Of a stretch of 64,000 nucleotides of DNA, positions 39,073 through 62,000 are shown one piece after another; positions within the stretch are counted from its first letter, which is position 1; each line of letters opens with the position of its first letter. The stretch comes from Verrucomicrobiia bacterium. GTDB lineage: Bacteria; Verrucomicrobiota; Verrucomicrobiia; Limisphaerales; UBA11358. The DNA is taken from assembly GCA_035577265.1 (NCBI GenBank), contig DATLVR010000119.1:4353-68352 (forward strand), read 5' to 3'. Position numbers and translations under genes: made by a program. The notes beneath the pieces are model-generated. The model saw only the letters and a list, made by a program, of their open reading frames with translations, had not been told where the DNA came from and did no database searches.

Positions 39073-39699
39073 TTACTCCGTCCGATGCTTGGCGACCGCT
39101 TCAACCCGGCTGCGCACATGCATCTTCTGGCAGATGTTTTTGGCGTGCGTGCGCACGGTTTCGGAAGCGATGTTCAGCTTGTCGCCAATCTCCTTGTAAA
39201 TGAAACCTTCTGAAAGCAGATCCAGCACTTCCCGCTCGCGCCGCGTCAGATTTTCCGTCTCGCTGTTGGACGGCCCGAGCAGATGGAAATGTTTCACCAC
39301 CTTCCGCGCGATATGCGTGGACAAGGCCGAACCGCCGTTATGGACGTCACGGATCGAGGCGATCAACTGTTCCGGCGGGCAGGATTTGACCAAATACCCG
39401 CTTGCCCCGGCCTTGAGCGCGCGAAAGATCCGTTCACTGTCCTCATAGACCGTGACCATGATGATTTGCATGTCCGGCAGAACTTTTTTTATTTCCGCCA
39501 CACATTGGATGCCAGACATGCCCGGCAACCGGATGTCCATCAGCACAACATCCGGCTTCTTTTCCAGGATCTTTGGCAGCGCCTCTTCGCCCGAGGCATA
39601 AACCGCAAGGCATTTTATATCCGGCGCGGTGGCGAGGGTTCGCACCAGCTCTTCCCGCAACCCCCGGTCATCTTCAACCACAATCACGTTTTTCTTCAT
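39073..39699 (-). CDS. NarL/LuxR-family response regulator
   Basis: The receiver domain reads VIVVEDD...VVLMDIRLPGMSG. The LuxR HTH reads LTRREREVLDLLSEGFIYKEIGDKLNIASETVRTHAKNI. Confidence 0.9.
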   Translation of the reverse strand: MKKNVIVVEDDRGLREELVRTLATAPDIKCLAVYASGEEALPKILEKKPDVVLMDIRLPGMSGIQCVAEIKKVLPDMQIIMVTVYEDSERIFRALKAGASGYLVKSCPPEQLIASIRDVHNGGSALSTHIARKVVKHFHLLGPSNSETENLTRREREVLDLLSEGFIYKEIGDKLNIASETVRTHAKNICQKMHVRSRVEAVAKHRTE

Positions 39700-44589: not shown

Positions 44590-45365
44590 TCCATCTCAAA
44601 ACTGCTGCCATCGCCAACGAAGCTCCCTTGCGTTCGGTCGCATTTGATCTGGGTAAAGTCGGCAAGCGGCCGGTTTCGCGCTGGCTGGTGCTGGCCGACG
44701 ACGAGATTTTTTCCGCACAATATTTTGGCAAGAACCTAAAAGGCTATTGGGAAAAACGGCGCGGAAATCGGCGACCTGCTCCAGCAATCCGCCGGGGAAT
44801 ATGCCGAGCTGTGTCGGCGCTGCGAAAAATTTGATCGCGAGTTGATGACCGATTTGGAAAAAGTCGGCGGACGCAAGTATGCCGAGATTTGCGCGCTCGC
44901 TTATCGGCAATCCTTCGCGGCGAGCAAGGTGGTTGCGGACGACAATGACCAGCCGCTTTTCTTCTGCAAAGAGGAAACCAGCAACGGCTGCATGGGAACG
45001 GTGGACGTCTTCTATCCGCAAGCCCCCTACCCTTGCTGGTCAGTCCTTCACTTTCAAAGGCCATGCTGATTCCGATCCTGGAATATGCCAGTTCGCCGCG
45101 CTGGAACTGGCCCGGCGCGCCGCACGATGTCGGCACCTGGCCGCTGGCGAACGGGCAGGTTTATGGCGGCTCCAAAAGCGACGGTGGCATGCCCGTGGAA
45201 GAAACCGGCAACATGTTGCTGCTCGTTGCCGCCGTCGCCCAAGTTGAAGGCAATGCCGACTTCGCCGCTAAATACTGGCCGACGCTGACCAAATGGGCCG
45301 AATATCTCCAAGCTTACGGACGCGATCCCGAAAACCAATTGTGCACGGATGATTTTGCGGTCACG
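44590..45365 (+). pseudogene. Frameshifted, 5'- and 3'-truncated glutaminase-like (DUF4965/DUF1793 family) gene
   Basis: The homology is spread over three frames: FDLGKVGKRPVSRWLVLADDEIFSAQYFGKNLKGYW / GGRKYAEICALAYRQSFAASKVV...FFCKEETSNGCMGTVDVFYPQAP / MLIPILEYASSPRWNWPGAPHDVGTWPLANGQVYGG...MPVEETGNMLLL...YWPTLTKWAEYL...QLCTDDFA. Confidence 0.7.
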
Positions 45366-45602
45366 CGCCGTCAGTTTGATGGGCTCAAGTATGGAAGCAC
45401 GCTTAAAGCGTGTAAGGCGGGACAATTGGCGGGATCCAGGGGGAGAACCTGCTCCACCGTTTAAAACAACCGAATCAGTCAGCAGGAAAATCCGCGCCGC
45501 CGGAATTGCCAAGATTGGCGCGGCGGCCAAAGCCAGTTGGGCGAAAGTCAGGGCCGCTGGCAAAAAAGCATTGTCAGCCAACTTCGACCAAGAGCCGTCC
45601 GA

Positions 45603-48600
45603 TCAGGGCGACACCGTGCGGTAAAAGCACCCACCACTGCTCGGCAGATTCGAGACGATCAATTCCACCACTCCTCCCACTACGTTGGTTGAACTTCCCG
45701 CCACTGCCGCCCAGACAGCGGGAAAGAGGTTGGTAGTCGCTTCGATGTGGTAAGTGAATCCTGGAGTCGCAGCGTAAGTCAGTTGCACCGACCCGTTACC
45801 ATTCACCACCCAACCCAGAATATTTTGTCGTGGAGGACTACCAGCGGGAGAAACTGCGAAGGGCACGCTCAAGGCATTACTGAGTGACGGCGTGCCGCTG
45901 GAAGTGAACCACTTGTTCGTCAGATAATTTTCCACCAGGGTCCGGTCAACGGCGTTTAGTGCAGTATTGTAAACTACCACCTCGGCCACATCTCCATCCC
46001 AACCATTGTCCACGGTGCCGGGTGAAGGTTCAAGGCGGCCGCCGATTGCCACGTCAGTAATGCCGTATTTGTAGGGGTTGATCCCATTGACGATGCTGGC
46101 GCTGTTGCTGCGCGTCAGTCCGGTGGCTTCCGTCAGGAAAAGGGTTGCTGCGCCGGCATTGTCCAAGAAGGTCAACGCGAACGCGGTGTTCAGGGCTGGC
46201 ACAGCGACATCCGCCTGCATGGGGGTGGTTGAGCGGTTGCGTTGGATGCCCAACGGATAGGGAGCGCCTTGGGAACCATCAGCCAGCACCACCACACCGG
46301 CAGTGCTCTTGCCGTCGATCTGGCCAGAGGCGCTGAAACTGACCGGTCCCTGCCAGCCGGTGTTCCCCCGTTCGTTCGCCACGAGGAAATAGGTCATTTG
46401 GCTACCGGTATTCGTGTAGGAATTCTTGCCGGTGTTCCCAAGATAAGTGCAGCCCGGGCCAGTGCCACTGCCATTTTTGCTAAACGTGATCACCGGCTTT
46501 CCGTTCAACTGGTTGGTCAGCCATGGCTGGAGCGTGGCCGTGTTCTGGGTGAACCACAGGTTGGTGCCCGAAACCCCGGCTCCACCATTGCCCTTGTTTT
46601 TCCATGCCTGAACCCGCGTGGCATTAGTTGACAAGGTGTTGGCATCACTGGCGTCCAGCCAGAGCACTGCGCCGGATACCGGATTGCCGGTCGGGCCAGT
46701 CATCGAGGCGACGAGCTGGTTGCCGCTGCCGGCGGTGTTAATGGCCAGATTGCTAAAACTCACAACTCCATTGCTGCCGCTGGTGCCGATGTTGAAATTA
46801 GTGGAGCCCGACAATGTGCCGCTGCCGCTGGTCAATGCGACATTGACGATCAGGCTGGCGGGCAAACCTGTGGTGGCCGGACTCCCAAACGCATCCACGG
46901 TCTTGAGAACCGGTTGCTGGCCGAACGGGATGCCGGCAACCGCCGAGCCGGGCTGGGTGGTAAAAGCCAGCGCCGCCACCGGGCCGATGACCATGAAGGA
47001 ACTGCTGTTGGTCGAAGGTGCGCCGCCGCTCACGGCGGAGGCGGTGAGGGTTTTCGGGCCGGCCTGATTCAAGCTCAAGTCATTGAAATGGGCGATTCCG
47101 CTGCCGTCAGTCAACCGGGTCAGTGTCCCGCTCAAGTTCCCCGTGCCGCTGCCGGGCGACAACGTGATTCCGGCGTTGCCCAGCGGTTGGTTATTGTTGC
47201 CGAAAGCCTGCACCTGAACTTCCGGTGACAGCGTCACGCCTTGGAGCACATTTCCGGGCTGCTGCACGAAGGCCATCCTCTGCAAAAGCGGACTGGAGAA
47301 ACTCGCAGTCTGCGTGATCGGGCCGTTCATGGCGACTGAACTCGCGCCGTTGTTGCCGGAATAGGATCCGCTCCCGCCGCCGATCCAGCTGTCGAAATTA
47401 TAACCGAGGTCAGCTGTCGCACTGATGTTCACACTGGCTCCGCTGTCCTGCCAGCCGCTGGCCGGACTCACGCTGCCGCCCGTTCCGGCGTTCATGGCCA
47501 GATAATATTGCGTCGTGAAGTTCGCCGTATAGTTGGTGCTGGCCAGAGGTGTGACGGTATGCGAAATCGCCCCGCCGTCGCTCCACGAACTCCATGCATC
47601 CTGCACGCCGGCTCCGAGGTTCTGTGGCGAGACGGTGCCGAGGGTGTGGACTGAACCCTGCATCCAGTTGAATGATTGCGCGGTCGTGTAATTGGTGCCA
47701 TCCACCGTGAACGAATGTCCCGCGGGATTGGCTTGGGCGGTCACGGCAATTGGTGTGGTCAGGAAATTAAAAGTAAATGCCGTGCTCTTGTTGATGCAAT
47801 CCGTCGCATACTTGTTGGTTTGCACGGCGACGAGGTTGGTGCCGTTGAGGGACAGGCCGCTCACGCTGATGCTTCCGCTGGCACTGCTATCGGCCAGCAC
47901 ACCGAAGACACCGTCGCAGTAATTGGTGTGATTTGGATAGGGATCCTGAGGGTGATACGGCGGAACCCCGACGGCATAAGTGCGCACCGTTATGCCGCTC
48001 ATGACCGCATCGGTCAGCGTATTGTGGAGGATCTGGACGGCGTAAGACAGGCTGTTGGAGATGTTGATGTTGTTTACGTTGAGTCCCGAGATGGTTTGGC
48101 CGTCCGGGCAGAGCGTGAGCGCGCCGCGCCAGCGCCACCCGGGATCATTACCGCCGCAACGGTTCAGATCACAGCGTTGGGCCGTCATCCCGCGGAACCC
48201 GTTCGTGCCGATCGGAAAGGTGCCGGCGAACAGGATGCCAGCACCGTTGGGGACGTCTTGGAACAAGCAATCCTCGACCCGGTTGCTAACCCCGCCGTAG
48301 ATACCGCAGGTATTGGCAAAAAAGGGTGTCTGTGCGGTGCAGTGGGTAATCACATTATAACCCGCCTGATAGGTCGGCGTGTAGTAGGTCGCAGGCCAGA
48401 TGGCAAAACTGTCATCGCCCGTGTTTCGCGCCGTGCAATTGGTAATGATGGAACTGTTGACGCCTACGCTCAGATTAATCCCGTCCGCGAGCGTGTTGCG
48501 AAACCGGCAGTCCTCAATGACCATGCCCTTGGCGTTGGCAATCCAAGCGCCGGTCTTGGTGTGCTCCACCCAGACCCTCGCGATCGTCGAGTTCGTGCCG

Positions 48601-49547
48601 AAGACTTCACTGAAACCATCATTGGCATACGAGTCATTCCGATTGTTGAGCTTTCCTACGATGGCGAAGTCGGCGAAATGGATGCTGCTTCCAGCGCCAT
48701 TGAACCGAACCCGGCCGCGCTCATTCACATAGGTGGCCGGATTGCCAACGAAAGTGGTGCGCCACATGCCCGCGCCTTGGATGGTCGTGCCGGCGAGGAC
48801 GTTAATGTCACTGGTGACCAGGTAATTCCCGGGAGGAAACCAGATAACACCTCCGCCCGCCACGCAGTTTTGGATGGCGATGGTGTCATCGTTGGTTCCA
48901 TTTCCGGTGGCTCCGCAACTCAGCACGGACTTCGAGCCGGGAGGCTGCGAGAGCGGCGGGGCGATATTCTCCAGATCCACCAGGTCAATCACATAGTACG
49001 AAGCGGAGTCATCCGCATTCACCTGCAGCCGGACATGGTCTCCAGTGCCAATGGACAGATTCATCAAGCGCGCTTCATCGTAGTAATCCCGCGCCTTGCC
49101 ATCGCCCGGGATGTTGGAAAAGGTGTAATTACCGTAAAGCCAGGAATACTTCGAGGTCATTGGAATTTTTTGGACGAAAGCTCCATTCAGATAAAGACTG
49201 AGAGTATAGTCGGCCCCAACTCCATCGGCTGAGTCAGGCACCGAGTAACGCACCACCATCGTGTTAGCCGCCGCTTGGGCGGTGAATTCAACATATTGTC
49301 CGGCGGCGGAAAGTTTCACGCATTGCCTGCCCGAAGATTCCATCTCGACGGTGTTGGTTATCGTCTGGTTTTTGTCCACCGCTCTTGGGGGCGGACCCAG
49401 GATGACGCCGTTGTTCGTCATGGCCTCCGCTTCATACGTGATCCACGGCACGGTCGCACCGGGAAAAGCTGTGGCCTTGCAAAGCGAAATAAACATTGCA
49501 AGTGTGGCGGCGTAAACCAGCCGCATACCGGACATTGCGCGCGGCAT
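45603..49547 (-). CDS. Large secreted multi-domain protein: CBM-like + right-handed beta-helix (pectate-lyase-fold glycosidase-like) + Ig-like repeats + LamG-like domain + C-terminal beta-sandwich module
   Basis: A signal peptide follows MPRAMSGMRLVYAATLAMF. ITYEAEAMTNNG...YVEFTAQ is CBM-like. CGATGNGTNDDTIAIQNCVAGGGVIWFPPGNYLV plus repeated beta-helix rungs follow. TTQPGSAVAGIPFGQQPVLKTVDAFGSP belongs to Big-like repeats. VLWLDASDANTL...QAWKNKGNGG...DVAEVVVYNTAL is LamG-like. The C-terminus reads ...TYHIEATTNL...FYRTVSP. Confidence 0.8.
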   Translation of the reverse strand: MPRAMSGMRLVYAATLAMFISLCKATAFPGATVPWITYEAEAMTNNGVILGPPPRAVDKNQTITNTVEMESSGRQCVKLSAAGQYVEFTAQAAANTMVVRYSVPDSADGVGADYTLSLYLNGAFVQKIPMTSKYSWLYGNYTFSNIPGDGKARDYYDEARLMNLSIGTGDHVRLQVNADDSASYYVIDLVDLENIAPPLSQPPGSKSVLSCGATGNGTNDDTIAIQNCVAGGGVIWFPPGNYLVTSDINVLAGTTIQGAGMWRTTFVGNPATYVNERGRVRFNGAGSSIHFADFAIVGKLNNRNDSYANDGFSEVFGTNSTIARVWVEHTKTGAWIANAKGMVIEDCRFRNTLADGINLSVGVNSSIITNCTARNTGDDSFAIWPATYYTPTYQAGYNVITHCTAQTPFFANTCGIYGGVSNRVEDCLFQDVPNGAGILFAGTFPIGTNGFRGMTAQRCDLNRCGGNDPGWRWRGALTLCPDGQTISGLNVNNINISNSLSYAVQILHNTLTDAVMSGITVRTYAVGVPPYHPQDPYPNHTNYCDGVFGVLADSSASGSISVSGLSLNGTNLVAVQTNKYATDCINKSTAFTFNFLTTPIAVTAQANPAGHSFTVDGTNYTTAQSFNWMQGSVHTLGTVSPQNLGAGVQDAWSSWSDGGAISHTVTPLASTNYTANFTTQYYLAMNAGTGGSVSPASGWQDSGASVNISATADLGYNFDSWIGGGSGSYSGNNGASSVAMNGPITQTASFSSPLLQRMAFVQQPGNVLQGVTLSPEVQVQAFGNNNQPLGNAGITLSPGSGTGNLSGTLTRLTDGSGIAHFNDLSLNQAGPKTLTASAVSGGAPSTNSSSFMVIGPVAALAFTTQPGSAVAGIPFGQQPVLKTVDAFGSPATTGLPASLIVNVALTSGSGTLSGSTNFNIGTSGSNGVVSFSNLAINTAGSGNQLVASMTGPTGNPVSGAVLWLDASDANTLSTNATRVQAWKNKGNGGAGVSGTNLWFTQNTATLQPWLTNQLNGKPVITFSKNGSGTGPGCTYLGNTGKNSYTNTGSQMTYFLVANERGNTGWQGPVSFSASGQIDGKSTAGVVVLADGSQGAPYPLGIQRNRSTTPMQADVAVPALNTAFALTFLDNAGAATLFLTEATGLTRSNSASIVNGINPYKYGITDVAIGGRLEPSPGTVDNGWDGDVAEVVVYNTALNAVDRTLVENYLTNKWFTSSGTPSLSNALSVPFAVSPAGSPPRQNILGWVVNGNGSVQLTYAATPGFTYHIEATTNLFPAVWAAVAGSSTNVVGGVVELIVSNLPSSGGCFYRTVSP

Positions 49548-49720
49548 TTTAGACGGCTCGTTGAAGTGAAGATTTGTATGCATACATCCAGCTAAGGCGT
49601 GGTCATCTTTTATAATACAGACTGCTTCCGGGAGATTTGGATTGGCATAAGCCATCGTTGTATTGTCTGTTTGGGACTTCTTGACATGTTGAACTTTAGC
49701 CGGGTTTCTGCCTTGCAACT

Positions 49721-49739
49721 AGTCGCATGAAGCGGTTAC
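49721..49739 (-). promoter_or_regulatory. Conserved 19-nt upstream motif, copy f (gene orientation GTAACCGCTTCATGCGACT)
   Basis: This is one of six copies of GT[CA][GA]CC-NN-[TA]TCATG[CT]GACT. It lies 174 nt upstream of the 49547 start of the beta-helix protein gene. Confidence 0.6.
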
Positions 49740-49838
49740 AGAGCCGAAACAATGGAAATGTCTACAACCCAGGCCGTCGGTGTAACCGGTTTATGCGACT
49801 GACGGCAGTTATAGATTCGGGCTAAACTATTCACATTT

Positions 49839-50963
49839 ATGGAACCACAGCGCCACGAGCAAAAGTCACATCATTCAATGGCAAATGCGGCAGATGTGCA
49901 TCCCGGAAGTCATCCCGTGGTGCGAGCCGCCGTGCCGGTATTTCGCCAATCGGCACTCGTCGGCTGCGGATTGCCAATCCACGACACAACCAGCTGGGAG
50001 CCTGCGCTGCCGTGGGCGGGGAGTTGCGGGGACCTCCCCCGATGCACCCGGATCTGGGCCGGTCGCTCCTGGAAAAAGGCCTTCACCCTGATCGAACTGC
50101 TGGTGGTGATTGCCATCATTGCCATTTTGGCCGCCATGCTGCTTCCCGCACTCTCGCGGGCAAAGGATCGAGCACTGGGGGCTGGTTGCTTGAGTAACAC
50201 CAGGCAAATCGCCATCGGGGTCACTCTGTATGCAGGCGATAACCTCGACGTGTTTCCCATGCCCAACCCGTGGTGGTCGCCTGGTCCTTATTTGAATTCT
50301 GCCGGCAAGAAGTGTGGCGGAGAATGGAACGCCAGGCCGCCGTCCGCAGCCCAGCCTGACGGACAACCCAACACCATCGCGCCGATGATCAAGAGCTACA
50401 CCGGGAATCCGCGCGTATGGGTTTGTCCTAAACGAAAGCGAGGACTGACCTACACCACTGAACCTGGAAATTTCGACCCGAGCTATACCGGCCTGCTTTC
50501 CTACGGATTCAATCAATGCAGTGTCTTTGGCCAGGTAAGCTCATCCGGGTCCATGAAGGTTCCGCCCATTCAATTTAAATCGGCCAACGTGCCTCGCCCA
50601 TCGGACGTGGTCAGTTGTTGTGACATTAGCGGAATGAACGATCCCAATATCGCGGGAACCGCCACGGCCTCGTCCGATGCGGCCTGGCTGGACGGCGTCT
50701 GGGCGGGCAATTCCGGCACGGTAGGCGCCCCGATGAATTTTCGGGTGCAAACCGCCTACGCCAAACACAACAGCCGTCTGAACTTCATCTACGTGGACGC
50801 CCACGCCGCCGCCTCAAAGCCCAGCCAAATCACTTGGGGCCAGTTCTTCGGAGTGTTTGGTTCCGGCATCACCATCAACACTTCCGGCTCTCCTGTGAAG
50901 TCTGACGATTCTATCAGCGTGCCATCGCTTGACAGTGTGGAATGGTCTTCTCAACCTGAATAA
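49839..50963 (+). CDS. Prepilin-type N-terminal cleavage/methylation-domain protein (H-X9-D[GA] family); start codon uncertain
   Basis: [30 protein letters not shown] and [21 protein letters not shown] are present, and the C-terminus reads [10 protein letters not shown]. The first ATG gives an 80-aa leader. An in-frame TTG at 49971 would give a leader of about 35 aa, like the paralogues. Confidence 0.8.
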
Positions 50964-51115
50964 ACAGCCCGCCTCCCGTAACGTTTGGTAAGGACATTAT
51001 CCACCGGTGTCCTTCCGGAAAGGTCTAGTCTAAAGGTTGGCCTCAAGCAATTAACCCACTGGCCGTGCAATTAAATATGGTTTGACAAACACACTGGGCC
51101 GGGTGTGATGGCAGA

Positions 51116-52042
51116 TCATTCCCAGGCATTATCAATCAGCCAATTAATATCGGCGGTGGGTGGTTGTGGAATGTTTTGATCGTGGACGCCATAGCCGCCA
51201 GTTCTTTTGGGCGCTCCCAACAGCCATGAGTCCGTCCACTTGTGGCGATCGGAATGGCCATCTGCAAAATTAAATATAGTGGAATTATTATGATAAAATC
51301 CCGGGATGTCATAAAGCATCTTCTTTTGCATATCGATGTAGAACCCGCCATCATTGATGGACACTGAATCTTCATCCAGCATGACAAATTTGTCGGACGG
51401 TCTTTTGATTTGAGTGCTTTTTTTATAGGTCCACGAATCTGGATCGGTCGCTCCCGTAGGTTGTCCCGTTGATCCGGGATAATGCATGAAATATGCCTTG
51501 TTTTTGCTGGCATCAATGCCTTCGCCCATGGCCCCATTCATGGAATAGCTGCGAACCCGTTGATTTCCGGCACTGTCAGGCAGAATATCTCCGGGGCATT
51601 TATAAACCCTGGGGTTTTTAGTATAAGTGGCCAGCTTCGCATAATTGTCGTCAGTTAATAACAATGAGTTGGTATTGTCCGGATTAAAGATAACGCTTAA
51701 AACCCCTGAAACCCAGCTGTTGTTGACCGGCGGAACCACCGGCGCGCCGTTGCCATAGTTGGGAGGCAGCTTTTCAATATTGTCGCCGCTATACATCACC
51801 CAGGCCAGGCCCAACTGCCGGCAATTGTTGAGGCACTGAATCGTCTGTGCCCTTTGCTTGGCTTTGGACAAAGCCGGAAGAAGCATTGCCGCCAGAATTG
51901 CAATAATCGCGATAACGACCAACAACTCAATCAATGTGAAGGCCGACTTCACAGAAGTCCCCCCAAGACTGTTCGTGGAAAAACGTAAAAGCGGGCCCGG
52001 GGATTTAAGCCGGTCGATTCTGGCGATCATTTTTCGGTTCAT
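51116..52042 (-). CDS. Prepilin-type N-terminal methylation-domain protein, DUF1559 / H-X9-DG family
   Basis: [34 protein letters not shown] and [20 protein letters not shown] (H-X9-DG) are present. Confidence 0.9.
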
Positions 52043-52136
52043 AATTTCTTTTAGTTACAAACTCCATCGGTATAAAACGAACACGTGAAACTTCTGGATT
52101 TATTGGTTCATGATAACCAATTTTTCCAATCTCCAT

Positions 52137-52155
52137 AGTCGCATGAAGTGGCGAC
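52137..52155 (-). promoter_or_regulatory. Conserved 19-nt upstream motif, copy d (GTCGCCACTTCATGCGACT)
   Basis: It lies 95 nt upstream of the 52042 start and contains a perfect GTCGC-N8-GCGAC inverted repeat. Confidence 0.6.
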
Positions 52156-52281
52156 CGGCAAAGGCCCGGTATAATCTTGTCTGTTAAATTAGACCAAACA
52201 CAGGGCGAACCGACAGAAGAGTCGCTTTCATAAATGGCTCAGAGGGCTCGTAGGCACACATCCATTAAGCGCCCACAGGAA

Positions 52282-53235
52282 CTATTCTGGTGTGGAAGAC
52301 CATTCCACGCTGTCCTTGTCTGGGGTGCTGATCGGCGTGTTTGAGTTATGTGAAGCTCCCGAAGGGGACATGATGGTAACGACGGAGTCAAGGTTTCCGC
52401 TAAAGTTTCCCCACAAGAGAGCGCTTGGCTTCGAGGCAGCGCAATGCCCGTCCACATAAAGAACATTGACCCGGCTGCTGTGTTTTGCATAAGCGGTCTG
52501 AAGGCGGCAGTCTGAAATCCCGGGGCTGTTAGGGCCGGAAGTTCCCGACCAATAGGTATCCAGCCAGCATCCACCGGCACCACTAGCCGGATCATTTGAA
52601 CCACTGATATCGGTGCTCACCACTAGATCAGACGGCTTTGAAACACTGGTAGATTTAAACGGTTTGGCATTGAGCATATTGCCGCTCGGATCAATTGAGC
52701 CAAATATGCCCAATTGATTGAAACCATAGGATAAAAAGCCCGTAATGCTTGGATCCCATTCTCCGGGGATGGTTTTGCAAGTAAGCCCGCGCTTGCGCTT
52801 TTGGCACACCCAGACTTTGTTGTTGGGAATATAAGCTGTCAACATGGGAGCCGGTGTGTTGGCATTAATGTTTACGCCGGTGCCCTTCCATTCCCCCCCG
52901 CAAGTTTGTCCATTTGCGTTTACATAGGGTCCTGCCGTCCACCACAGGTTGGGCTGCGGGAAAAAATTCCCATTGTCATCGGCATACATGGCGATGCCGA
53001 GCCCGATCTGTTTGGTGTTGCTCAAGCAAGCTACGGCCAGCCCCTTGTCCTTGGCCTTGGCCAAAGCTGGCAACAGCATGGCCGCCAGAATGGCAATAAT
53101 CGCGATCACAACAAGCAACTCAATCAGGGTGAAGGCCGATTTCAACGGCTTCGCATTGACGCCGTTTCGGGGGAAATGCGAAGAAACGCCTGGCAATTTA
53201 TACTGGTCAACCGGGGTGATTCTTTTACCGTTCAT
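52282..53235 (-). CDS. Prepilin-type N-terminal methylation-domain protein (H-X9-DG), paralogue of 49839..50963
   Basis: [30 protein letters not shown] and [21 protein letters not shown] are present, and the C-terminus reads [10 protein letters not shown]. It is collinear with the 49839 protein ([10 protein letters not shown] / [10 protein letters not shown]). Confidence 0.9.
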
Positions 53236-53345
53236 ATATTTTTTTCTGTAAACTCAATGCCCAAACTGCGGCATAAAAAGACGGGTGTTAATGCACAGGA
53301 GGATTGATTTCTGCCACATTAAACACGAGTCTCACAAATTTCAAA

Positions 53346-53364
53346 AGTCGCATGAAGTGGTTAC
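53346..53364 (-). promoter_or_regulatory. Conserved 19-nt upstream motif, copy e (GTAACCACTTCATGCGACT)
   Basis: It lies 111 nt upstream of the 53235 start. Confidence 0.6.
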
Positions 53365-53551
53365 ATGGCGAAGCGGGTTGAAGTCCTCGCCAAAACACGT
53401 TACTGCCACTGGCGCAAGCGGGAGCGATTCTGAAGTCATGAGAGGCCCCCAAATTAATCATATGGCCGGAAACATTTTCCAGATCAGACTTTGTCGGTGG
53501 AGGTTTCCATCTGCGTTGGTTGAGGTCGCGGTCAAGTGTGAGGTCTATAGT

Positions 53552-53570
53552 GTCGCCGTTTCATGCGACT
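53552..53570 (+). promoter_or_regulatory. Conserved 19-nt upstream motif, copy a (GTCGCCGTTTCATGCGACT)
   Basis: It lies 80 nt upstream of the 53650 start and contains a perfect GTCGC-N8-GCGAC inverted repeat. It is divergent to copy e in the same intergenic region. Confidence 0.6.
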
Positions 53571-53649
53571 ACCACCCGATGCGGCTTAGTCATATTGTAT
53601 CGCAAATCTCCTTGCGTACCTCCAACAATAAACCCCAGCTAACAAACAA

Positions 53650-54999
53650 ATGAAAATAAAACAAGCTCCTGCCATGTTCACAGTTCTGGCGGCTCTGTTT
53701 CTAGTCGCGAACGGCCACACGGCAACTATCACCGCTACCGGCAGTGGCAATTGGTCTTCCACAACGCCAGATGCGCCATGGCCGGGTGGATTGGTGCCGT
53801 CATCAACCGACAATGTAACGGTCAATACGCCCAATAATGTGACTGTGGATGCGGTTCAGACTATTGATTATATCGCCGGCAGCGGCACGGTTACCATGGC
53901 GGTTGGGGCCACGCTCAACGTCACTGGCACCACCGGCGGCACCGGAATTACAGTCGCAACCTTGAATGCTTCTGCCACGGACAGCACAGTTGATTATCAG
54001 GGCAACGCCTATTTTACGAAATATACGACCTATTACAATCTAAAATGGAGTAATTATGGCGGACCGTTTGCCAACCTGCCGCTGACTGTTCTCAAAGATT
54101 TCACCATGACCGGATTCATCAACGGACAAGCTGGCGGCGGTGGCGGACTCACCGTCGGCGGCGACTTCATCGTTGGTGCCAACGTCGTCAAGTGGGATAT
54201 TTCTTGCGAGCCTTGCACCGTGGCCGGCAACACGATTATCGGAGGCAAACTGCTAATCGGGTGCGGCAGTGGTGCCACCGCCAGCTTCCACCATGTAACA
54301 GTCAACTCCGGCGGGACTTTTGACTTGGGTGATACAATCCGCGCCACCATCAGTGGAAATTTGACGAATAATGGAACCATAACGGGCACCGGTCATGCCA
54401 GCATCAATTTTACCGGCAATGGTCAAATCACCGGCAGCAGCCCGCTTTCACCTCCCACCGTGGCATTTAAGGGAACAACCACCGTTCTTGACGCGTTAAA
54501 CCTTACCTTTACCCCGGATTTTATTGGAACAGTGGTGTTTGACCTGGCGAACCCGCAACTGGTGACCTGCGCCAATACACTGTATTTTGGCAATGCGCTA
54601 ACTGTCATCAATACCGGTGGCGCACTGACGACTGGCAGTAGCTATCAGCTTTTCAGCGCTCCGAGTTACAACGACCCCTACACGTTCGCAACCATCAATT
54701 TACCGAGTCTCGCTCCGGGCCTCAGTTGGGTCAGCAACACTTTGACCACCAGCGGGTCAATTTCCATCACCGGCACCGCCAGCGGCGGCAAGCCTGTCAT
54801 CAGCCTGCTTAACAGTGGCGGCAGCCTGACTTTGTCGTGGGACAGCACCACTTTCCCGGGCTACACGGTTCAGGCTCAAACGAACAGCGCCAGCGCGGGG
54901 CTTGGTAATAACTGGGTAGACACGGGCAGCGGCACTCCGTATATCGTCCCGATCAGCCTCTCCAGTCCGTCAGTGTTCTTCCGTTTGGCTCACCCTTGA
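53650..54999 (+). CDS. Secreted beta-strand-repeat (autotransporter-associated-repeat-like) protein with conserved C-terminal ...FFRLAHP module
   Basis: The signal peptide reads MKIKQAPAMFTVLAALFLVANG. ATITATGSGNWSS follows. The body is Gly/Thr/Asn-rich parallel-beta repeats. The C-terminus reads LTLSWDSTTFPGYTVQAQTNS...VFFRLAHP. Confidence 0.8.
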   Translation: MKIKQAPAMFTVLAALFLVANGHTATITATGSGNWSSTTPDAPWPGGLVPSSTDNVTVNTPNNVTVDAVQTIDYIAGSGTVTMAVGATLNVTGTTGGTGITVATLNASATDSTVDYQGNAYFTKYTTYYNLKWSNYGGPFANLPLTVLKDFTMTGFINGQAGGGGGLTVGGDFIVGANVVKWDISCEPCTVAGNTIIGGKLLIGCGSGATASFHHVTVNSGGTFDLGDTIRATISGNLTNNGTITGTGHASINFTGNGQITGSSPLSPPTVAFKGTTTVLDALNLTFTPDFIGTVVFDLANPQLVTCANTLYFGNALTVINTGGALTTGSSYQLFSAPSYNDPYTFATINLPSLAPGLSWVSNTLTTSGSISITGTASGGKPVISLLNSGGSLTLSWDSTTFPGYTVQAQTNSASAGLGNNWVDTGSGTPYIVPISLSSPSVFFRLAHP

Positions 55000-55110
55000 C
55001 GAATTTAAATCCACGGCGGGTGTGCAGAATCAGGCGCGCCCGCTGTTCTCATATTGATCAAACATTCAAACAACCCCAGGCAATCAGCCCAAAACTCAAA
55101 CATTTAAACC

Positions 55111-56970
55111 ATGAAAAATAAAACCTTCGAAATTTTACTATTGGCCGTCGGGGCCGCCACAATGATGGGCGTTTCCATCAGCCGGGCAGCAACCTTTACC
55201 GCCACCACCACCGGCAATTGGAGTCTTGGTGCCACTTGGGGCAACTCCGGTAACAATGTGGTCGGCTCTGGTGTCCCCGGCTCGGCCGATGCCGCCGTGA
55301 TTCCTGTCGGCTTCACGGTGACCTATGACAACAGCGCGCCAGTGACCGCTGGGACGGTTGACGTCTCGGGATCAATCATCGTCTCGAAAAACAATGCTGG
55401 CACCAGCGGACCCACCTTTGGAGATTTTGCCATTGAGAGCGGCGGTGTTTATTCTTTCGGAAATCAGATTCCCATCACCTTTACTGGCAATTTCACCAAC
55501 CTCGGCAGCATGAATATTTCCGGCCAAAGCCAGACCGCTCTGACAACCTACAGTGGCACAGGAAAAGTTATTGTCGGAAACGTGACGAACCAGATAGCAA
55601 ACATCACCGGAAGCTACACAAACCTCGGTCTTCTGCTCGTGGGCGCGAATGCACAAAGCGGCAATGTGCAAGGATCTGGTTCATTGGTAAATCTGGGAAC
55701 GATCATCAGCAAAGGAACTTCGGCAGTTGCGGCTGGCCTGACGCTGGATGGCACCGCCGCCGGGAATACATTCCGTTGGACCGACGTCAACATCACTCCG
55801 ACGCCCAAGGCAACCGCCTATTACAATCTTATTCTCGGCAACCAAGGGTCTGCTGGTTGGAATTTGAACGGTGCCGGTCTCACTGTTGCGGGCGATTTGA
55901 CGATTGCGAACGTTGGTGGTGTTTCTTCCTGGCCAGCCAACAATGTCATCGGCGGCATGCTTAATTACAACGCTTCCTCTGGAACTGCTGCGGCTGGTTT
56001 CCCTGCTGCATTTTCAATCGGCGGCCTCAACCAAACTTCGGGCACATTGGCATTACCTGCAAATGCCGTCCTCACGGTGACCGGCACGGGCGCGAGCGCT
56101 TGGGCACGAACGGGCGGTGCCTTGAACATCAGCGGGACAAGCACCGTTAAATTCACCGGCGGGGCGCCTAGCATCGGCGGAACGGCTGCCAACCGGTTTG
56201 CCAATCTGGTCATTGATGGCACTGCCGTCAATGCATCTGCCACCGCAGCGCTTATTGTCACCAACGCCCTGACTATTAACGGCGGAGGTTCACTGGACGT
56301 GACGGCGTTGACCACTTACACGTTGTCCGTGACGCAATCTGTTTTAAGCGCTGGCACTATCGTGGGCAGTGTTGACACGGCGGCCAATTCCAAGGCCAGA
56401 ATATACGCGGGAACCGACGGTGGATTTGGCACGAACACAATTACCGGCAACCTCACCTTGAACATCACCAACAGCGTCAATCTGGACATCAACTCCACGG
56501 CGGCTTCTGCCAATGACCGCCTGGCTGTGGGCGGCACATTGACGCTGAACAGCACCGTGTTCAACCTCAAAGCTCCAAGCGATGGCGCGACCATTGACAC
56601 CGCCAATGATTATACCCTCGCCACGGCAAGCACCATTTCGGGCACGCCGGTTTTGAATTGGGTGGCCGGCTTTGTGCCGGCCAACAGCAATGACTACGTT
56701 CTGGTGGTCAATGGTGGAACCATCAAGCTTCACAATACGGGCGGCGTGGTGCCGGTGGGTTCACCAGCTATTACTGCATCCGTCAGCGGCGGCATCCTGA
56801 CCTTATCTTGGGACAGCACCACCTTCCCCGGTTACAGCGTTCAGGCTCAAACCAACAGCACCGGCATTGGCACAAGTTGGAGTGATACCGGCAGCGGCAC
56901 AGTCAGTCCCTATCAACCCACAATAGACCCGGCTAACCCGACAGTGTTTTATCGACTGGCTCATCCTTGA
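55111..56970 (+). CDS. Secreted beta-strand-repeat protein, paralogue with C-terminal ...FYRLAHP module
   Basis: A signal peptide is present. ATFTATTTGNWSLGATW follows. The body consists of repeats. The C-terminus reads LTLSWDSTTFPGYSVQAQTNS...VFYRLAHP. Confidence 0.8.
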   Translation: MKNKTFEILLLAVGAATMMGVSISRAATFTATTTGNWSLGATWGNSGNNVVGSGVPGSADAAVIPVGFTVTYDNSAPVTAGTVDVSGSIIVSKNNAGTSGPTFGDFAIESGGVYSFGNQIPITFTGNFTNLGSMNISGQSQTALTTYSGTGKVIVGNVTNQIANITGSYTNLGLLLVGANAQSGNVQGSGSLVNLGTIISKGTSAVAAGLTLDGTAAGNTFRWTDVNITPTPKATAYYNLILGNQGSAGWNLNGAGLTVAGDLTIANVGGVSSWPANNVIGGMLNYNASSGTAAAGFPAAFSIGGLNQTSGTLALPANAVLTVTGTGASAWARTGGALNISGTSTVKFTGGAPSIGGTAANRFANLVIDGTAVNASATAALIVTNALTINGGGSLDVTALTTYTLSVTQSVLSAGTIVGSVDTAANSKARIYAGTDGGFGTNTITGNLTLNITNSVNLDINSTAASANDRLAVGGTLTLNSTVFNLKAPSDGATIDTANDYTLATASTISGTPVLNWVAGFVPANSNDYVLVVNGGTIKLHNTGGVVPVGSPAITASVSGGILTLSWDSTTFPGYSVQAQTNSTGIGTSWSDTGSGTVSPYQPTIDPANPTVFYRLAHP

Positions 56971-56986
56971 TTGGTTAAGTTTGTGG

Positions 56987-57020
56987 CGGGTGCGTATCAT
57001 TGATACGCGCCCGTTTTTTT
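56987..57020 (+). terminator. Rho-independent terminator after the 55111..56970 gene
   Basis: CGGGTGCGTATC-ATT-GATACGCGCCCG forms a 12-bp stem (one G-U pair) followed by TTTTTTT. Confidence 0.75.
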
Positions 57021-57059
57021 GTGCTCAAAAACCATTTCGCACCGACGCTATCTTCCCAT

Positions 57060-57078
57060 GTCGCCAATTCATGTGACT
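57060..57078 (+). promoter_or_regulatory. Conserved 19-nt upstream motif, copy b (GTCGCCAATTCATGTGACT)
   Basis: It lies 156 nt upstream of the 57234 start, just after the terminator of the preceding gene. Confidence 0.55.
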
Positions 57079-57233
57079 ATCACTTGGTGCCAGAATCATT
57101 ACCATATTGTCATACACCCACTAATCAGGAACCCGTGCCGACCATTAAAAAGGCGTGCCCATATTAACTGGCAAATATCACGCTAATTGTTTGATGCCGT
57201 TTTACCGCTTCCAAAGACAACCCACAAAAACAA

Positions 57234-58805
57234 ATGAAAACAAAATTTTTTATCACCATATTGATCGTTCCAAGCTTGGTCTTATGCGCTTCAGCGAGCT
57301 GGGCGGATACCATCACTGCGAATCCAGGCGGCGGCGGCTGGCATAACACCGGAACTTGGGTGGGTGGTGTCGTGCCATCTGCGACTGACGATGCCGTCTT
57401 GACACCATCTGTTAATGTGGATTCGAGCGTGTCCATCCATAATATTTCCGTCAGCGGCGGCGGGACATTTTTTGTCGGCAGCCCGCTGAACGCCAGCGGA
57501 GACATGTCCTTGAGCGGAACGTTGACGGTGCAACAAGGCGCCGCAGTCACCATCGGCGGCAATCTGAACATCGGCAGCGGCACGACGTATGACCCGTCTT
57601 GCAACGATGTCACGGTGACGGGCGACACGTCGGTCAGCGGCATTTTGAAAGACGGTTGCGGACTTAACAATCATCTGGCGGATACCCTGGGTGGTAATGT
57701 CACCGTCAATTCCGGCGGTGTGTGGCAGTTATCCGACGTGGCCGAATGGTTGGTTGGCGGCAATGTGGTGAATAACGGCAGTATCACGGCCACTAGCGGC
57801 GGAATAACCTTCGTTGGCAGTGGCAAGACCATCAGCGGGAATTCTTTTCCAATTCCAAAAATGGTCGTCAACGGCACGATTCAGAACAGCATGGCACTGA
57901 CGATCGCCACGGCGCTTTCTGGTTCGGGAACATTAACTGTCGGCGCCAACACGACGCTCACGCTTGGAGGAACAGCAACCGTGGGAGCGCTGGACGCCTC
58001 TGCCAGCCCCAACACCGTTACTTACAGCGGCGCGGCGCAAACCGTGAAGCCTGCTGCCTACAACCAGCTCACCTTGAGCGGCAGCAACGTCAAAACATTT
58101 TCCAGTGGCTCCACGGTGAGCGGCAACCTGACAGTTTCTTCGCCTGTGCGCGCTGCCATCAATACGACCGTGACAGTTGCAGGCGCCACCACTGTGAATG
58201 CCGGTGCAACTTTATCCGGCACGGGAATACTGAATGGGGCAACCGCCGTCAATGGCACTATTGCTCCCGGCCCGACCATTGGAACTCTGACGCTAGGCAG
58301 CAACCCAAGTCTTAATGGAACAACGGTGATGGAAATCAATCGCACCGCTTCGCCCAATGCCGACTTGCTGACGATTAGCGGCGACCCACTGACTTACAGC
58401 GGCACATTGACGGTGAATAATCTGGGTCCGGCGCTCGCCGCCGGCGACACCTTCCAACTTTTCAATGCCTCAGGTTATTCCAGCACATTTGGCACGGTAA
58501 CCCTTCCCACGCTTGGAGCCAACCTCGCTTGGAACAATACTCTCGCATCGAACGGCGCTATCTCCGTCATCAGCACGCTGCCTCCCGGCGCGCCAAGCAT
58601 CTCAGCTTCTCTTGGCGGAACCAATCTGACACTGTCCTGGGACAGCACAACTTTCCCCGGTTATAGTGTTCAAGTTCAAACGAACATCTCCAGTGCGGGA
58701 CTTGGTGCCAGTTGGAACGACACGGGCAGCGGCACGGTCAGTCCCTATGCGACCACGATAGACCCGGCCAACCCGGCCGTGTTCTACCGCCTGGCGCATC
58801 CTTGA
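57234..58805 (+). CDS. Secreted beta-strand-repeat protein, paralogue with C-terminal ...FYRLAHP module
   Basis: The signal peptide reads MKTKFFITILIVPSLVLCASASWA. DTITANPGGGGWHNTGTW follows. The body consists of repeats. The C-terminus reads LTLSWDSTTFPGYSVQVQTN...VFYRLAHP. Confidence 0.8.
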   Translation: MKTKFFITILIVPSLVLCASASWADTITANPGGGGWHNTGTWVGGVVPSATDDAVLTPSVNVDSSVSIHNISVSGGGTFFVGSPLNASGDMSLSGTLTVQQGAAVTIGGNLNIGSGTTYDPSCNDVTVTGDTSVSGILKDGCGLNNHLADTLGGNVTVNSGGVWQLSDVAEWLVGGNVVNNGSITATSGGITFVGSGKTISGNSFPIPKMVVNGTIQNSMALTIATALSGSGTLTVGANTTLTLGGTATVGALDASASPNTVTYSGAAQTVKPAAYNQLTLSGSNVKTFSSGSTVSGNLTVSSPVRAAINTTVTVAGATTVNAGATLSGTGILNGATAVNGTIAPGPTIGTLTLGSNPSLNGTTVMEINRTASPNADLLTISGDPLTYSGTLTVNNLGPALAAGDTFQLFNASGYSSTFGTVTLPTLGANLAWNNTLASNGAISVISTLPPGAPSISASLGGTNLTLSWDSTTFPGYSVQVQTNISSAGLGASWNDTGSGTVSPYATTIDPANPAVFYRLAHP

Positions 58806-58828
58806 GTTCCAAAGGTTGCCAACCGGCT

Positions 58829-58847
58829 GTCACCATATCATGCGACT
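58829..58847 (+). promoter_or_regulatory. Conserved 19-nt upstream motif, copy c (GTCACCATATCATGCGACT)
   Basis: It lies 220 nt upstream of the 59067 start of the giant ORF. Confidence 0.55.
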
Positions 58848-59066
58848 ATCGTGTATGATTAAAAATGATAAATTAAATAAAACCCTGTCACATCCTGGAC
58901 ACCTGTTCATAACCACGGCATGTCGTTTTTTATCTCCGTGTTAATTGGGGTAAGATGGACACTTGCCCATTAAAAGGTGGTGGCGCAGTGCGAGTGCGAT
59001 CGTGGTGTTCGTCAGCGGGAAACAGTTATCAGAAAACCCTAAACAGCATATTGTCCCCTAATTCAT

Positions 59067-62000
59067 ATGAAGACTACCCAGGCAGCCGGTCGGCAGATTT
59101 CCGTCCTCCTCATCGCATTCGTTGCGCTGTTCGGCGCGATAAATGTTCAAGCGGCAAATTATACAGCCGCAATAAGCGGGAATTGGAATGGAGATGCCTT
59201 TGCCATATGGGGCGTTGCCAAAACATCGCAAACCGGCACCATTTTTGTCAATAATACCAGCACTTCAGCGGTAGTAGGGACGGGCACTTCATTCACCACG
59301 ACGGTTGTGGTTGGGGACTCCATTTATGCTGGCAGCACATTTATTGGTATCGTGGGAATAATTACCGACAATACTCATCTTAGCCTCGCCGCGAACTCCC
59401 TCGCGGGCGTTCCGGCGGGCACGGCTTGGTTCTCTGCCAGGCCGCCGACTTCCAGTGATACTGTTACAATTCCATCTGGTAAGACTATTACCATTCAAAA
59501 CAGCGATCCGCGCACACTTGGATCTGTCATTCTCAGCGGTCAACTAAGCGTCGGGTCGGGTTCGGGCAGCGTCGCTGTTACCGTTGGAGGAGATATGACG
59601 GTTAATAGCGGTGGAATTCTAAAATTGGATACGCAAAACGCCCAAGGCATTACTTACAACGGGAATGTGACCAACAATGGCGCGACCCTTTATAGTGCAA
59701 ACGGCAGCACAACCTACACCTACGCTGGAGGAACTGTTGGTTCGCCAAAATATTTGGTTGGAAATATCACTAACGTGATTGCCAAAGTCACCGGGGTGTA
59801 TGTAAACCTTGGCAACCTTGTCACTGGCAGCGGTCAACAAGTTACAGGATTGCAGGGAACCGGTGGCTCGTTGACCAATCTTGGCGTGATTTATTACGGT
59901 GGAAATGCGGTTCCTTCAATTACGACGCTCATCACCACCAATACGGGTAGTGCATTCATTTGCGTTTCCGGGTCCGGACAGCAGGGGTTTTCTTTTTCCG
60001 GAAAGTATTACAATCTGAACTACGGCGCCGCAGGGGGCACACCTAGTCTGGCCAGTATTACTGATATTTATTATAATTTAACTCTGGCGGCAGGGGTCTC
60101 TACATGGCCAAGCAGCTTGAATTTTGCCGGCACATTATTGAATAATACTGGTGCCTCATCAAGTTCGAGTGCAATTACGATGACCGGCAACACTGCCATC
60201 GGCGGCTCTCAGGCAATCACTGCGAGCGGTGTGATTAGCGGCAGTAGTAAATCGCTGGCCAAATTCGGCACAGGCACGGCCACATTGAAACCAACTAGCA
60301 CAGCAGTTGAAACCTACACGGGCAACACAGTGCTTTATGGAGGCTCCTTAATCGAAGATTACACCGGCGGAACTATAACGGCAGACTTGATCAATAATGC
60401 TTCGGCACTTTCGCTGGGTGGTCCAGCGTTCGCCTTCCAAGGCGGCAGTGCCACTTTTCAAATAACTGGAAGAAACGCAGCTACGACTTTAAATCAGACG
60501 TTTAATGGCGCGACTATCAATCCGGGGGGTTATGTAGTCACGATTGCTGGGGGAAATGCCGGCGCGACATTCAATCTGCATCTTGGTACCATTACCCGAA
60601 GCGTGGCTGGCGGCGCGGTCAACTTCACCACTTCCGGCAGCGGCACGCGCAATATCATGACGACGCAGATCAACAACAACGGCATCATCGGGCCGTATGC
60701 CATTTTCCAAGGAACTGATTTCGCCACGGGCAGTGCGGCGGGCAGCGATACGACCATCGCCCCTGTCAGTGCGACTGCATTGCCCACGTCCGGTGGCACC
60801 TCTACTGTCAATTATTCGTTGGCTGGCAGCCAAACCCAATCGAGTGATGTTACCGGCAATACGCTCAAACTTACGAGCACAACAACCAGTCAGTCTTTGG
60901 CGCTCGGAACAGCCAACTTGACGGTCAACGGCCTGGCCTATTCGACGGTTAATGCATATACCATCAGCGGCAGCACTGGCATTCTCGGTGCGGGCTCTGG
61001 CAATGAGTTTATCATTCATCAAAATAGTGCTGGCACCTTGACAATCGGCGCGCCGCTTATTGGAGCAAACAACGGCAGGCTTACCAAGGTCGGCACCGGC
61101 AATTTGACCCTGACCGGAGCCAGCAGCTACACCGGTAACACAGTCGTCGGGCAGGGAACTCTACAACTTGGTGCGGGTGGCTCAATCAATAATTCAACCA
61201 GCATCAATGTATTGCCTGGCGCCACTTTTACGGTCAACGGCACCACTACCACTCCTGCGAGTCAGGATCTGGCTGGTAGCGGAACAATCAACGGTGGCGC
61301 TCTAACTTTGGGTGCCAGTGGAACAATCCATCCCGGCGGTGCCGGTCAGTACGGCACGCTAACGTTTGCAAGCGGTTTGACACTTCCTTCCACCGCTACT
61401 GCTACCTTCGATCTTGATGCACAACAGTCACCGCAAGATGATCAAATTGCTGTGACCGGCACTTTGACCTGCGGTAGTGCCAATGTGGTTATCAATCCAG
61501 GCCCAAATTTTGGTCCTGGGACTTACATTTTGGCCACAGCCAGCACCGCTGTGTCCGGCACATTCAACCCTACGGTCAGTTTCGCTTCTGGAGCAGGGAC
61601 TGTCACGCTATCATATACCGCGACCAGCGTTATTCTTAAAGTTACAAGCTATGCTTCATGCGCTACGCCTGCGCTTTTCACCGTGGGTGGCGGGACTAAT
61701 TGCAGTGATTCCGGACTGACCCTTACGTTAAGTGGTTCTGAAATTGGCACGACTTACTTCGTGCGCACCAATGGCGTTGCCAACGGGATTTTGTCAAATA
61801 GCGTTAGCGGTGGTGCGCTTAGTTTCCCGGTTCAAACCGATGCTGGAACTTACACGTTGCTGGCGTCAAACAGTTGCGGCAATACACTTCTAATGACCGG
61901 CAGCGCGGTTGTGAATCCTGCAATCAACACGGCGTATAACCTGACCGGCGGAGATGGATGTTCAAGTCCGGGGGTGATCATTGGGTTGAGCGGATCACAG

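Follow-up and report, generated by a model that had tools for sequence, protein, structure and literature searches.

A candidate activator-binding promoter element upstream of glycan-hydrolase, prepilin-like and surface-protein genes in Verrucomicrobia

Response regulators of the NarL/DosR type combine a receiver (REC) domain with a GerE helix-turn-helix (HTH) domain, pair with HisKA_3 kinases and recognize inverted-repeat half-sites, which are arranged as 7-2-7 heptamers in their operators, spaced at 9–10 bp in NarL or DosR dimers and contained in a 20-bp box in the case of DosR. At the lux-type boxes of LuxR and TraR, and at the site of the phage Mu protein Mor at −43.5, an 18–20 bp dyad element with its centre in the low −40s takes the place of, or overlaps, the absent −35 region, and a dimeric HTH activator acts with the housekeeping-sigma polymerase and a normal −10 box (PMC4390567). 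Hybrid two-component systems of Bacteroides detect glycan fragments via a sensor made of a Reg_prop propeller and Y_Y_Y (PMC3243724). Upstream of PEP-CTERM genes, Haft et al. (2006) described an element composed of a PrsR site and a sigma-54 promoter, which was stated to be restricted to Proteobacteria, with other motifs left to find (PMC1569441). Here we describe a 19-nt element in a 64,000-nt stretch of DNA from a Verrucomicrobiia bacterium of the Limisphaerales (GenBank assembly GCA_035577265.1, contig DATLVR010000119.1, positions 4,353 to 68,352 of the forward strand), the whole of which is called the window below. We assign a probability of about 65% to the reading that this element is the activator-binding part of a promoter, used for class-II-type activation by a NarL/LuxR-type regulator (group A, defined below) that would control a regulon of glycan hydrolases and surface proteins. 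In the searchable literature, searches with the core sequence and with DUF1559 in Verrucomicrobia turned up no account of the motif; the element is most likely undescribed so far and an ordinary kind of switch, the response-regulator-dependent promoter element of a local glycan regulon.

A scan of the window with the degenerate pattern GTMRCCNNWTCATGYGACT returned six motif sites, at exactly the coordinates and strands of the six copies that the original prediction, made from the sequence alone, had placed upstream of surface-protein and prepilin-like genes. None were expected (100 dinucleotide shuffles of the window), and allowing up to 3 mismatches to GTCGCCNNTTCATGCGACTA still yielded these six sites alone. 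The accompanying statement that no convincing copy exists in the other 50 kb was right for the remaining ∼54 kb of the window, and the 4.8 kb past its right end contain none either, but a seventh copy inside the region had been overlooked: GTAACCGGTTTATGCGACT at 49782–49800 on the plus strand, found via the conserved right half and oriented to a prepilin-like gene at 49878. The seven copies lie within 9.1 kb, and all of them (7/7) are intergenic and oriented to the next gene, so that the constant orientation noted before extends to the added copy. As predicted, the divergent region 53236–53649 carries one copy per direction, and the divergent region 49656–49877 does likewise. The base preceding the motif is T in 6/7 copies, and a −10-like box follows 21–22 nt past the motif in 7/7. 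The copies and their boxes are as follows.

49721–49739, minus strand: copy 1, GTAACCGCTTCATGCGACT, from the pattern scan, oriented to an alpha-1,3-glucanase-like gene
49693–49698, minus strand: −10-like box TAAAGT, 22 nt past copy 1
49782–49800, plus strand: copy 7, GTAACCGGTTTATGCGACT, a 'TTTAT' variant typical of the region upstream of prepilin-like orthologues in other genomes
49823–49828, plus strand: −10-like box TAAACT, 22 nt past copy 7
52137–52155, minus strand: copy 2, GTCGCCACTTCATGCGACT, from the pattern scan
52110–52115, minus strand: −10-like box TATCAT, 21 nt past copy 2
53346–53364, minus strand: copy 3, GTAACCACTTCATGCGACT, from the pattern scan
53318–53323, minus strand: −10-like box TTTAAT, 22 nt past copy 3
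53552–53570, plus strand: copy 4, GTCGCCGTTTCATGCGACT, from the pattern scan
53593–53598, plus strand: −10-like box TATTGT, 22 nt past copy 4
57060–57078, plus strand: copy 5, GTCGCCAATTCATGTGACT, from the pattern scan
57100–57105, plus strand: −10-like box TACCAT, 21 nt past copy 5, the weakest of the seven boxes
58829–58847, plus strand: copy 6, GTCACCATATCATGCGACT, starting 24 nt past the stop codon of the preceding gene
58869–58874, plus strand: −10-like box TAAATT, 21 nt past copy 6

Scanning 185,579 species genomes (one per bacterial or archaeal species) for GTMRCCNNTTCATGCGACT identified at least 117 loci with the exact motif, the site counts per genome being lower bounds. Among the matches listed, at least 46 loci are labelled Verrucomicrobiia, Limisphaerales or similar (manual count of record titles) and at least about 17 further loci with other labels contain the same gene cluster; the other matches listed, in Streptomyces, Proteobacteria and others, fall in coding sequence and look like chance occurrences. 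In related Limisphaerales- and Pedosphaera-type Verrucomicrobia, the element lies upstream of prepilin-like genes, genes for PEP-CTERM and other surface proteins, and alpha-glucan hydrolase genes, and it faces the gene in every case. Among the open reading frames (ORFs) whose start is no more than 400 nt downstream of a motif-plus-box site (n = 42) are 17 PEP-CTERM, 9 N_methyl, 4 GH99, 2 GH71, 1 GH31 and 1 CatAgl, and GH97 is also present among the 124 ORFs of 22 motif loci; the SusC and SusD families do not figure in the 25 most frequent Pfam families there. The small regulon of cell-surface proteins that had been proposed does contain surface proteins, but it is wider and includes glycoside hydrolases, for example the alpha-1,3-glucanase-like gene of the window. 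Maps of 20 loci revealed a recurring order of kinase, regulator, motif, prepilin-like gene, motif and surface or PEP-CTERM gene, with a glucanase or GH97 gene close by, and the regulator stop codon is often ∼20–40 nt from a motif copy.

The full element reads T-GTCRCC-RY-TTYATGYGACT-R, followed after 21–23 nt by a −10-like TAnnnT that often takes the form TGnTAnnnT. In verrucomicrobial hits, TA[AGT][AGT]NT is positioned 21–23 nt past the motif end with a sharp peak at 22, and a TAnnnT box is nearly absent elsewhere in the 54 nt scanned past the motif. Over all sequence retrieved, 57% (98/172) of the unique sites have TAnnnT at 21–23 nt, compared with ∼1.5% by chance, and TG precedes the box in 29 of these 98. 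No −35 hexamer was detected, the match to TTGACA being 2.7/6 at the expected position and 2.4/6 at random TAnnnT positions, and a generic sigma-70 promoter scan found no canonical promoter in any motif-bearing intergenic region of the window. A directional element of 20–21 nt followed by a fixed gap of 21–23 nt and a −10 box without a −35 thus has the architecture of an activator-dependent promoter. On this spacing the motif would occupy about −54 to −36, centred near −44.5, upstream of the transcript.

The same anatomy bears on whether the element is a transcribed stem-loop, as a hairpin in the 5′ untranslated region (5′-UTR) or in DNA, or a dispersed repeat of the repetitive extragenic palindromic (REP) or miniature inverted-repeat transposable element (MITE) kind. 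The inverted repeat GTCGC-N8-GCGAC, originally given as the core of the motif, is present as a partial dyad in three window copies, as a stem-loop would require. Across sites, however, the left arm is GTCGC, GTAAC or GTCAC, full five-position pairing is found in only 20/98, and the commonest arm combination is an A/C mismatch (66/98), with no compensatory change; positions 45–64 kb gave no Rfam match (E ≤ 1). With a conserved −10-like box downstream of it, the motif is most likely part of the promoter rather than a 5′-UTR hairpin. In 80 unique sites the conserved stretch includes the base preceding the motif (T, 84%) and about three bases following it (R-Y-Y), after which conservation is at background until the −10 box, with information near zero within 2 nt upstream and ∼4 nt downstream. 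Since conservation ends within 2–4 nt of the motif, there is no longer repeat unit, and the copies are intergenic and gene-facing, so that we regard a stem-loop or a dispersed repeat as very improbable.

Strict orientation and a rigid spacing of 21–23 nt to the −10 box would also suit an element that, as a whole or through its invariant proximal half TTCATGCGACT, is read directly by the polymerase, via an alternative sigma factor or as an unusual upstream promoter element. A proximal half that stays constant while the distal half changes among regulator subgroups points the same way. Yet the 22-nt gap is too long for a −35/−10 pair of the sigma-70 family, the 22 motif loci show no enrichment of genes for sigma factors, anti-sigma factors or enhancer-binding proteins, and a general promoter feature would not be expected to be confined to one gene island per genome, as this element is; we consider direct reading quite unlikely. 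Two particular sigma classes were rejected. Sigma-54 promoters have GG at −24 and GC at −12, ten nt apart (TGGCAC-N5-TTGC); the nearest reading of the element is TGtCAC-N6-aTGC, where T replaces the second G in 98% of sites and the two parts are one base further apart than they should be. No sigma-54 interaction domain occurs among the 25 commonest Pfam families of the 124 ORFs in the 22 motif loci. Promoters for extracytoplasmic function (ECF) sigma factors have a GGAAC-like −35 and a CGTC-like −10, 16–17 nt apart, and no GGAAC...CGTC box pair is present at motif sites. The ECF-like sigma factor encoded at 26991 in the window, which had been named as a candidate to bind the motif, matches sigma region 2 only marginally, and none of the motif-bearing loci encodes a homologue of it. 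Sigma70_r4 matches in the motif loci (11–12) are about equal in number to the 12 GerE proteins and are probably HTH cross-matches, as with the window regulator. The three options first considered for the element were a shared operator for a dimeric regulator, part of an alternative-sigma promoter and a 5′-UTR stem-loop; the comparative data support the first well and do not support the other two.

A separate set of five loci (L007, L038, L043, L063 and L115) has the exact motif without a −10 box at 21–23 nt. In these loci the motif is followed by ∼60 highly conserved nt (ttcgaccggtgcRgaattcaggcaRgtt...) and lies upstream of a gene for a HAD-family hydrolase, just downstream of a distant LuxR-type regulator gene (∼30% identity).

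In other genomes the motif adjoins one orthologous two-component system, consisting of a sensor kinase and a NarL/LuxR-type response regulator (REC plus GerE HTH). The kinase (875 aa) has a periplasmic double beta-propeller (Reg_prop) and Y_Y_Y, followed by a membrane segment and a HisKA_3 core. The regulators, denoted as group A, are a tight group, mostly 74–97% identical to each other, with the near-invariant recognition helix ISIDTIRTYLRRIYEKL, ISIDTIRT[YH][LVI]RR[IV]YEKLHVQSRTEAVAKY. Motif and regulator are associated in both directions. Starting from the motif, we found a group-A regulator in ∼20 of ∼45 eight-kb blocks; the regulator families enriched among the 124 ORFs of the 22 motif loci are Response_reg plus GerE (n = 12), HisKA_3 (n = 7), Reg_prop (n = 6) and Y_Y_Y (n = 6), and no candidate regulator family other than group A recurs there. 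For the reverse test, 80 metagenome loci were picked by homology to the group-A regulator alone, with the motif ignored. The motif was present in 8 of the 10 loci with at least 76% regulator identity and more than 3.9 kb of sequence, and in 0 of ∼59 loci at 65% regulator identity or less.

Loci at 69–77% regulator identity, whose recognition helices differ slightly, carry variant elements that retain the core TTYATGYGAY and the 21–23 nt distance to TAnnnT but have as distal half GTCCTCAC, GTGGTCAC (a perfect GTCAC-N5-GTGAC palindrome) or ATGCACAA (with helix ISINTIRTHLRHIYEKL). As far as sequence comparison can indicate, this joint variation of distal half and helix is what regulator–site co-evolution would look like. 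A crude k-mer search near a regulator group of 54–62% identity gave no convincing distinct motif. In the variant-motif loci (L126, L127, L129, L131, L132 and L134–L137) each variant goes with its own regulator subgroup, and L137 contains tandem double sites 23 nt apart. In two other loci, a single kinase gene is followed by a tandem pair of group-A regulator genes that are 74–78% identical to the reference (L080, 5280–6620; L090, 2870–4132).

From these data we infer a mechanism in which a periplasmic glycan fragment would be sensed by the propeller kinase. Our best guess for the signal is an alpha-1,3- or other alpha-glucan oligosaccharide, because the enzyme set is GH87-like, GH71, GH97 and GH31. 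The phosphorylated NarL-type regulator would dimerize on the element centred near −44.5 and recruit the housekeeping-sigma polymerase to promoters with a −10 but without a −35. In this composite promoter the motif would form the upstream half, to which the activator binds, adjoining or overlapping the position of sigma region 4, and the promoters would be silent until the bound activator recruits RNA polymerase. The predicted regulon is a local island of alpha-glucan hydrolases (CatAgl/GH87-like, GH71, GH97, GH31 and GH99-like), N_methyl/DUF1559 prepilin-like proteins, and PEP-CTERM and other surface proteins; in the window the motif would drive seven transcription units between 45.6 and ∼67 kb.

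Several observations weigh against this mechanism. The −10 box is assigned by consensus and spacing alone. The site is asymmetric, with a near-invariant promoter-proximal half and a variable distal half, and the centres of its outer arms are separated by 13 bp, more than the 9–10 bp of NarL/DosR dimers. The dyad symmetry is imperfect (GTC[A/G]C-N8-G[C/T]GAC), whereas sister-group sites are perfect GTCAC-N5-GTGAC; a simple symmetric dimer on GTCRC-N8-GYGAC may be the wrong register, and the sister-group palindrome suggests an inner one. The asymmetry could come from a high-affinity proximal protomer that contacts polymerase, or from a second reader. Common descent and synteny are confounders both for the regulator–motif association and for the way in which the distal half varies with regulator subgroup. 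Finally, no group-A regulator is encoded in the window or in the next 4.8 kb, and the cognate two-component system should lie elsewhere in this genome.

Confounding by phylogeny likewise favours the reading that the element is a repressor operator, or the site of an unlinked transcription factor, with the proximity of the two-component system due to conserved synteny only; NarL-family proteins can also repress. Against repression, the missing −35 favours activator dependence, and repressor sites usually overlap the −35/−10 or the transcription start rather than lie upstream in fixed phase. As noted, no second regulator family recurs in the loci, and the two-component system stays close to the motif although gene order around it varies. 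We judge this alternative unlikely.

The window does encode a two-component system of the same broad family as group A, with a LuxR-type regulator (REC plus GerE) at 39073–39699 and a kinase at 39756–41459, both on the minus strand, and the regulator had been put forward as a candidate to bind the motif. The nearest motif copy is 8–10 kb away from these genes, which have glycoside hydrolase genes as neighbours, and the kinase has a ∼300-aa periplasmic domain ending in a Y_Y_Y-like segment. At the positions equivalent to the base-contacting residues of the NarL–DNA structure, the regulator has R-T..K and the motif-associated group R-T..R. It is, however, only 46–50% identical to the motif-associated regulators, with a different recognition helix (IASETVRTHAKNICQKM), and its own orthologues, widespread in Pedosphaera and Limisphaerales assemblies, are 75–80% identical. 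The window kinase lacks propellers and aligns to the motif-associated kinase over the catalytic core only. Four independent 5–20 kb neighbourhoods of 39073 orthologues contain CatAgl, GH99-like, GH92 and GH2 genes and no motif. A fifth orthologue locus holds both systems side by side. One orthologue shares a 614-kb contig with a group-A system and the motif, which shows that the two are paralogues co-existing in one genome. The candidate is thus of the right family but is a paralogue whose orthologues have no motif nearby, another NarL-type group being the one that accompanies the motif, and it is improbable that the window's own system binds the motif in this organism.

An assignment of 39073 as an orthologue of the motif-associated regulators (tblastn, 45–50% identity) was rejected on alignment, homologue search and context, all of which show a separate paralogue. 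The window pair probably responds to glycans as well, as a second system that acts through a different operator. A GH99-like gene at 37627–38994 on the plus strand has a weak Pfam match and a 770-nt upstream region without the motif; it may be a target of the window system, because orthologous GH99-like genes adjoin that system in loci L203 and L207. Loci with 39073-type orthologues are L203, L205 and L207–L210.

Returning to activation by a group-A regulator, the predicted system shares with NarL and DosR the REC plus GerE HTH family, the HisKA_3 partner kinase and inverted-repeat half-sites, and differs in the half-site sequence, in arms 13 bp and not 9–10 bp apart, in the variable distal half and in having a single site per promoter in fixed phase. 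Its resemblance to lux-type boxes and Mor (PMC4390567) would extend from the position of the element to the mode of action, with a phosphorylation-controlled NarL-type regulator predicted here in place of an autoinducer receptor or phage protein. A strong asymmetry sets the present site apart, and the value of about −44.5 for its centre is deduced from sequence. As in the Bacteroides hybrid systems (PMC3243724), a Reg_prop plus Y_Y_Y sensor accompanies a local glycoside hydrolase and surface-protein regulon beside it, but the HisKA_3 kinase and the NarL-type regulator are split instead of fused as kinase, receiver and AraC, and prepilin-like and PEP-CTERM proteins are found where Sus-like loci have SusC and SusD. 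In the recently described regulator BguR a periplasmic propeller plus Y_Y_Y sensor is likewise coupled to a GerE-type DNA-binding output; BguR lacks kinase and receiver, carries sensor and HTH on one polypeptide, belongs to another phylum, responds to another glycan and, from what has been described, has an unrelated motif. The PEP-CTERM element of Proteobacteria similarly precedes transcription units that have long leaders and mostly consist of one PEP-CTERM gene, and it too is linked to a two-component system of its own, but it uses sigma-54 and an enhancer-binding protein (PMC1569441), as opposed to a sigma-70-type −10, no GG/GC and a NarL-type regulator here. The system belongs to none of the lux-type, Mor, Bacteroides hybrid and BguR systems.

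A bolder picture, which we offer tentatively and with more doubt than confidence, is a verrucomicrobial counterpart of a polysaccharide-utilization locus. In it, alpha-1,3-glucan hydrolases would be induced jointly with type-II-secretion-like pseudopilins (DUF1559/N_methyl) and with PEP-CTERM or giant surface proteins, under the control of a propeller sensor and a NarL-type regulator, and the latter two protein classes would take the capture and export roles of SusC/D-type proteins; as a further possibility, the proximal half could be read by a lineage-specific component of the polymerase and the distal half by the regulator.

To our knowledge, Limisphaerales- and Pedosphaera-type Verrucomicrobia are abundant in soils and peat, are nearly all uncultured and have no mapped promoters or regulons. 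Through the element, one regulon that many of these bacteria have in common becomes accessible at the sequence level. The element ties three protein classes of obscure role in this phylum (the very large DUF1559/prepilin-like family, PEP-CTERM and giant beta-strand-repeat proteins) to a glycan sensor and alpha-glucan hydrolases, which suggests that these classes act together in polysaccharide capture or degradation, the target possibly being fungal alpha-1,3-glucan. It also provides an example of what Haft et al. left open, a PEP-CTERM regulatory DNA motif outside Proteobacteria (PMC1569441). Motif and −10 box together allow regulon members to be annotated in metagenome-assembled genomes, and the variant motifs with their regulator subgroups constitute a natural data set on joint change of regulator and site.

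Over 16.7 kb, the sequence of the window matches a public metagenome contig without a difference, and we used the gene calls of that contig to refine gene starts. The distances from motif to start codon given originally are correct for the ORF starts used, but the public calls shift three of these starts (to 49655, 52030 and 53674). The features downstream of the motif copies are as follows.

45603–49655, minus strand: alpha-1,3-glucanase-like gene with CatAgl_D1/D2, pectate-lyase fold and immunoglobulin-like domains (1350 aa by the public gene call)
49878–50963, plus strand: prepilin-like gene with N_methyl cleavage/methylation motif
51116–52030, minus strand: prepilin-like gene with N_methyl and DUF1559
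52282–53235, minus strand: prepilin-like gene with N_methyl
53674–56970, plus strand: two surface-protein genes, 53674–54999 and 55111–56970
56985–57015, plus strand: intrinsic terminator with 14-bp stem and T run, ending the 53674–56970 unit
57234–58805, plus strand: surface-protein gene (523 aa)
59067–64000, plus strand: gene for a giant surface protein with PATR/autotransporter-type beta-strand repeats, extending past the window end (2742 aa on the identical public contig)

The seven copies serve one alpha-1,3-glucanase-like gene, three prepilin-like genes and four genes for secreted surface proteins. The product of 52282–53235 is 50–62% identical to the product of the prepilin-like gene adjoining the motif in more than 20 other genomes. 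Three of the surface proteins have in common a C-terminal module of ∼70 aa (…LTLSWDSTTFPGY.VQ.QTN…VF[YF]RLAHP), encoded at 54700–54999, 56670–56970 and 58500–58805. This module matches no Pfam or NCBIfam model, is also present in homologues from other motif loci and may be a sorting or anchoring domain that replaces PEP-CTERM.

The alpha-1,3-glucanase-like gene is probably monocistronic. In the gene calls of identical public contigs, two short plus-strand ORFs with GtaA_6_Hairpin (glycosidase) matches lie at 44845–45464 and look like fragments of a broken gene. As these separate the glucanase gene from GH2, the minus-strand genes there are not one operon, and we rejected a transcript from copy 1 via GH2 to the window kinase and regulator. 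In agreement with the original prediction, no separate copy precedes the gene at 55111; together with the strong terminator 3′ of this gene, this is consistent with co-transcription with the gene whose start was first placed at 53650, and 53674–54999 and 55111–56970 probably form one transcript. A 122-aa ORF with a GTG start (53285–53653, plus strand) spans the divergent region, covers copies 3 and 4 and is almost certainly not a gene. Motif copies start as near as ∼5–24 nt past the preceding stop codon, with no terminator between (58806–58847 in the window, and loci L009, L010, L055 and L084); where the motif abuts a stop codon in this way, read-through and regulated re-initiation may coexist.

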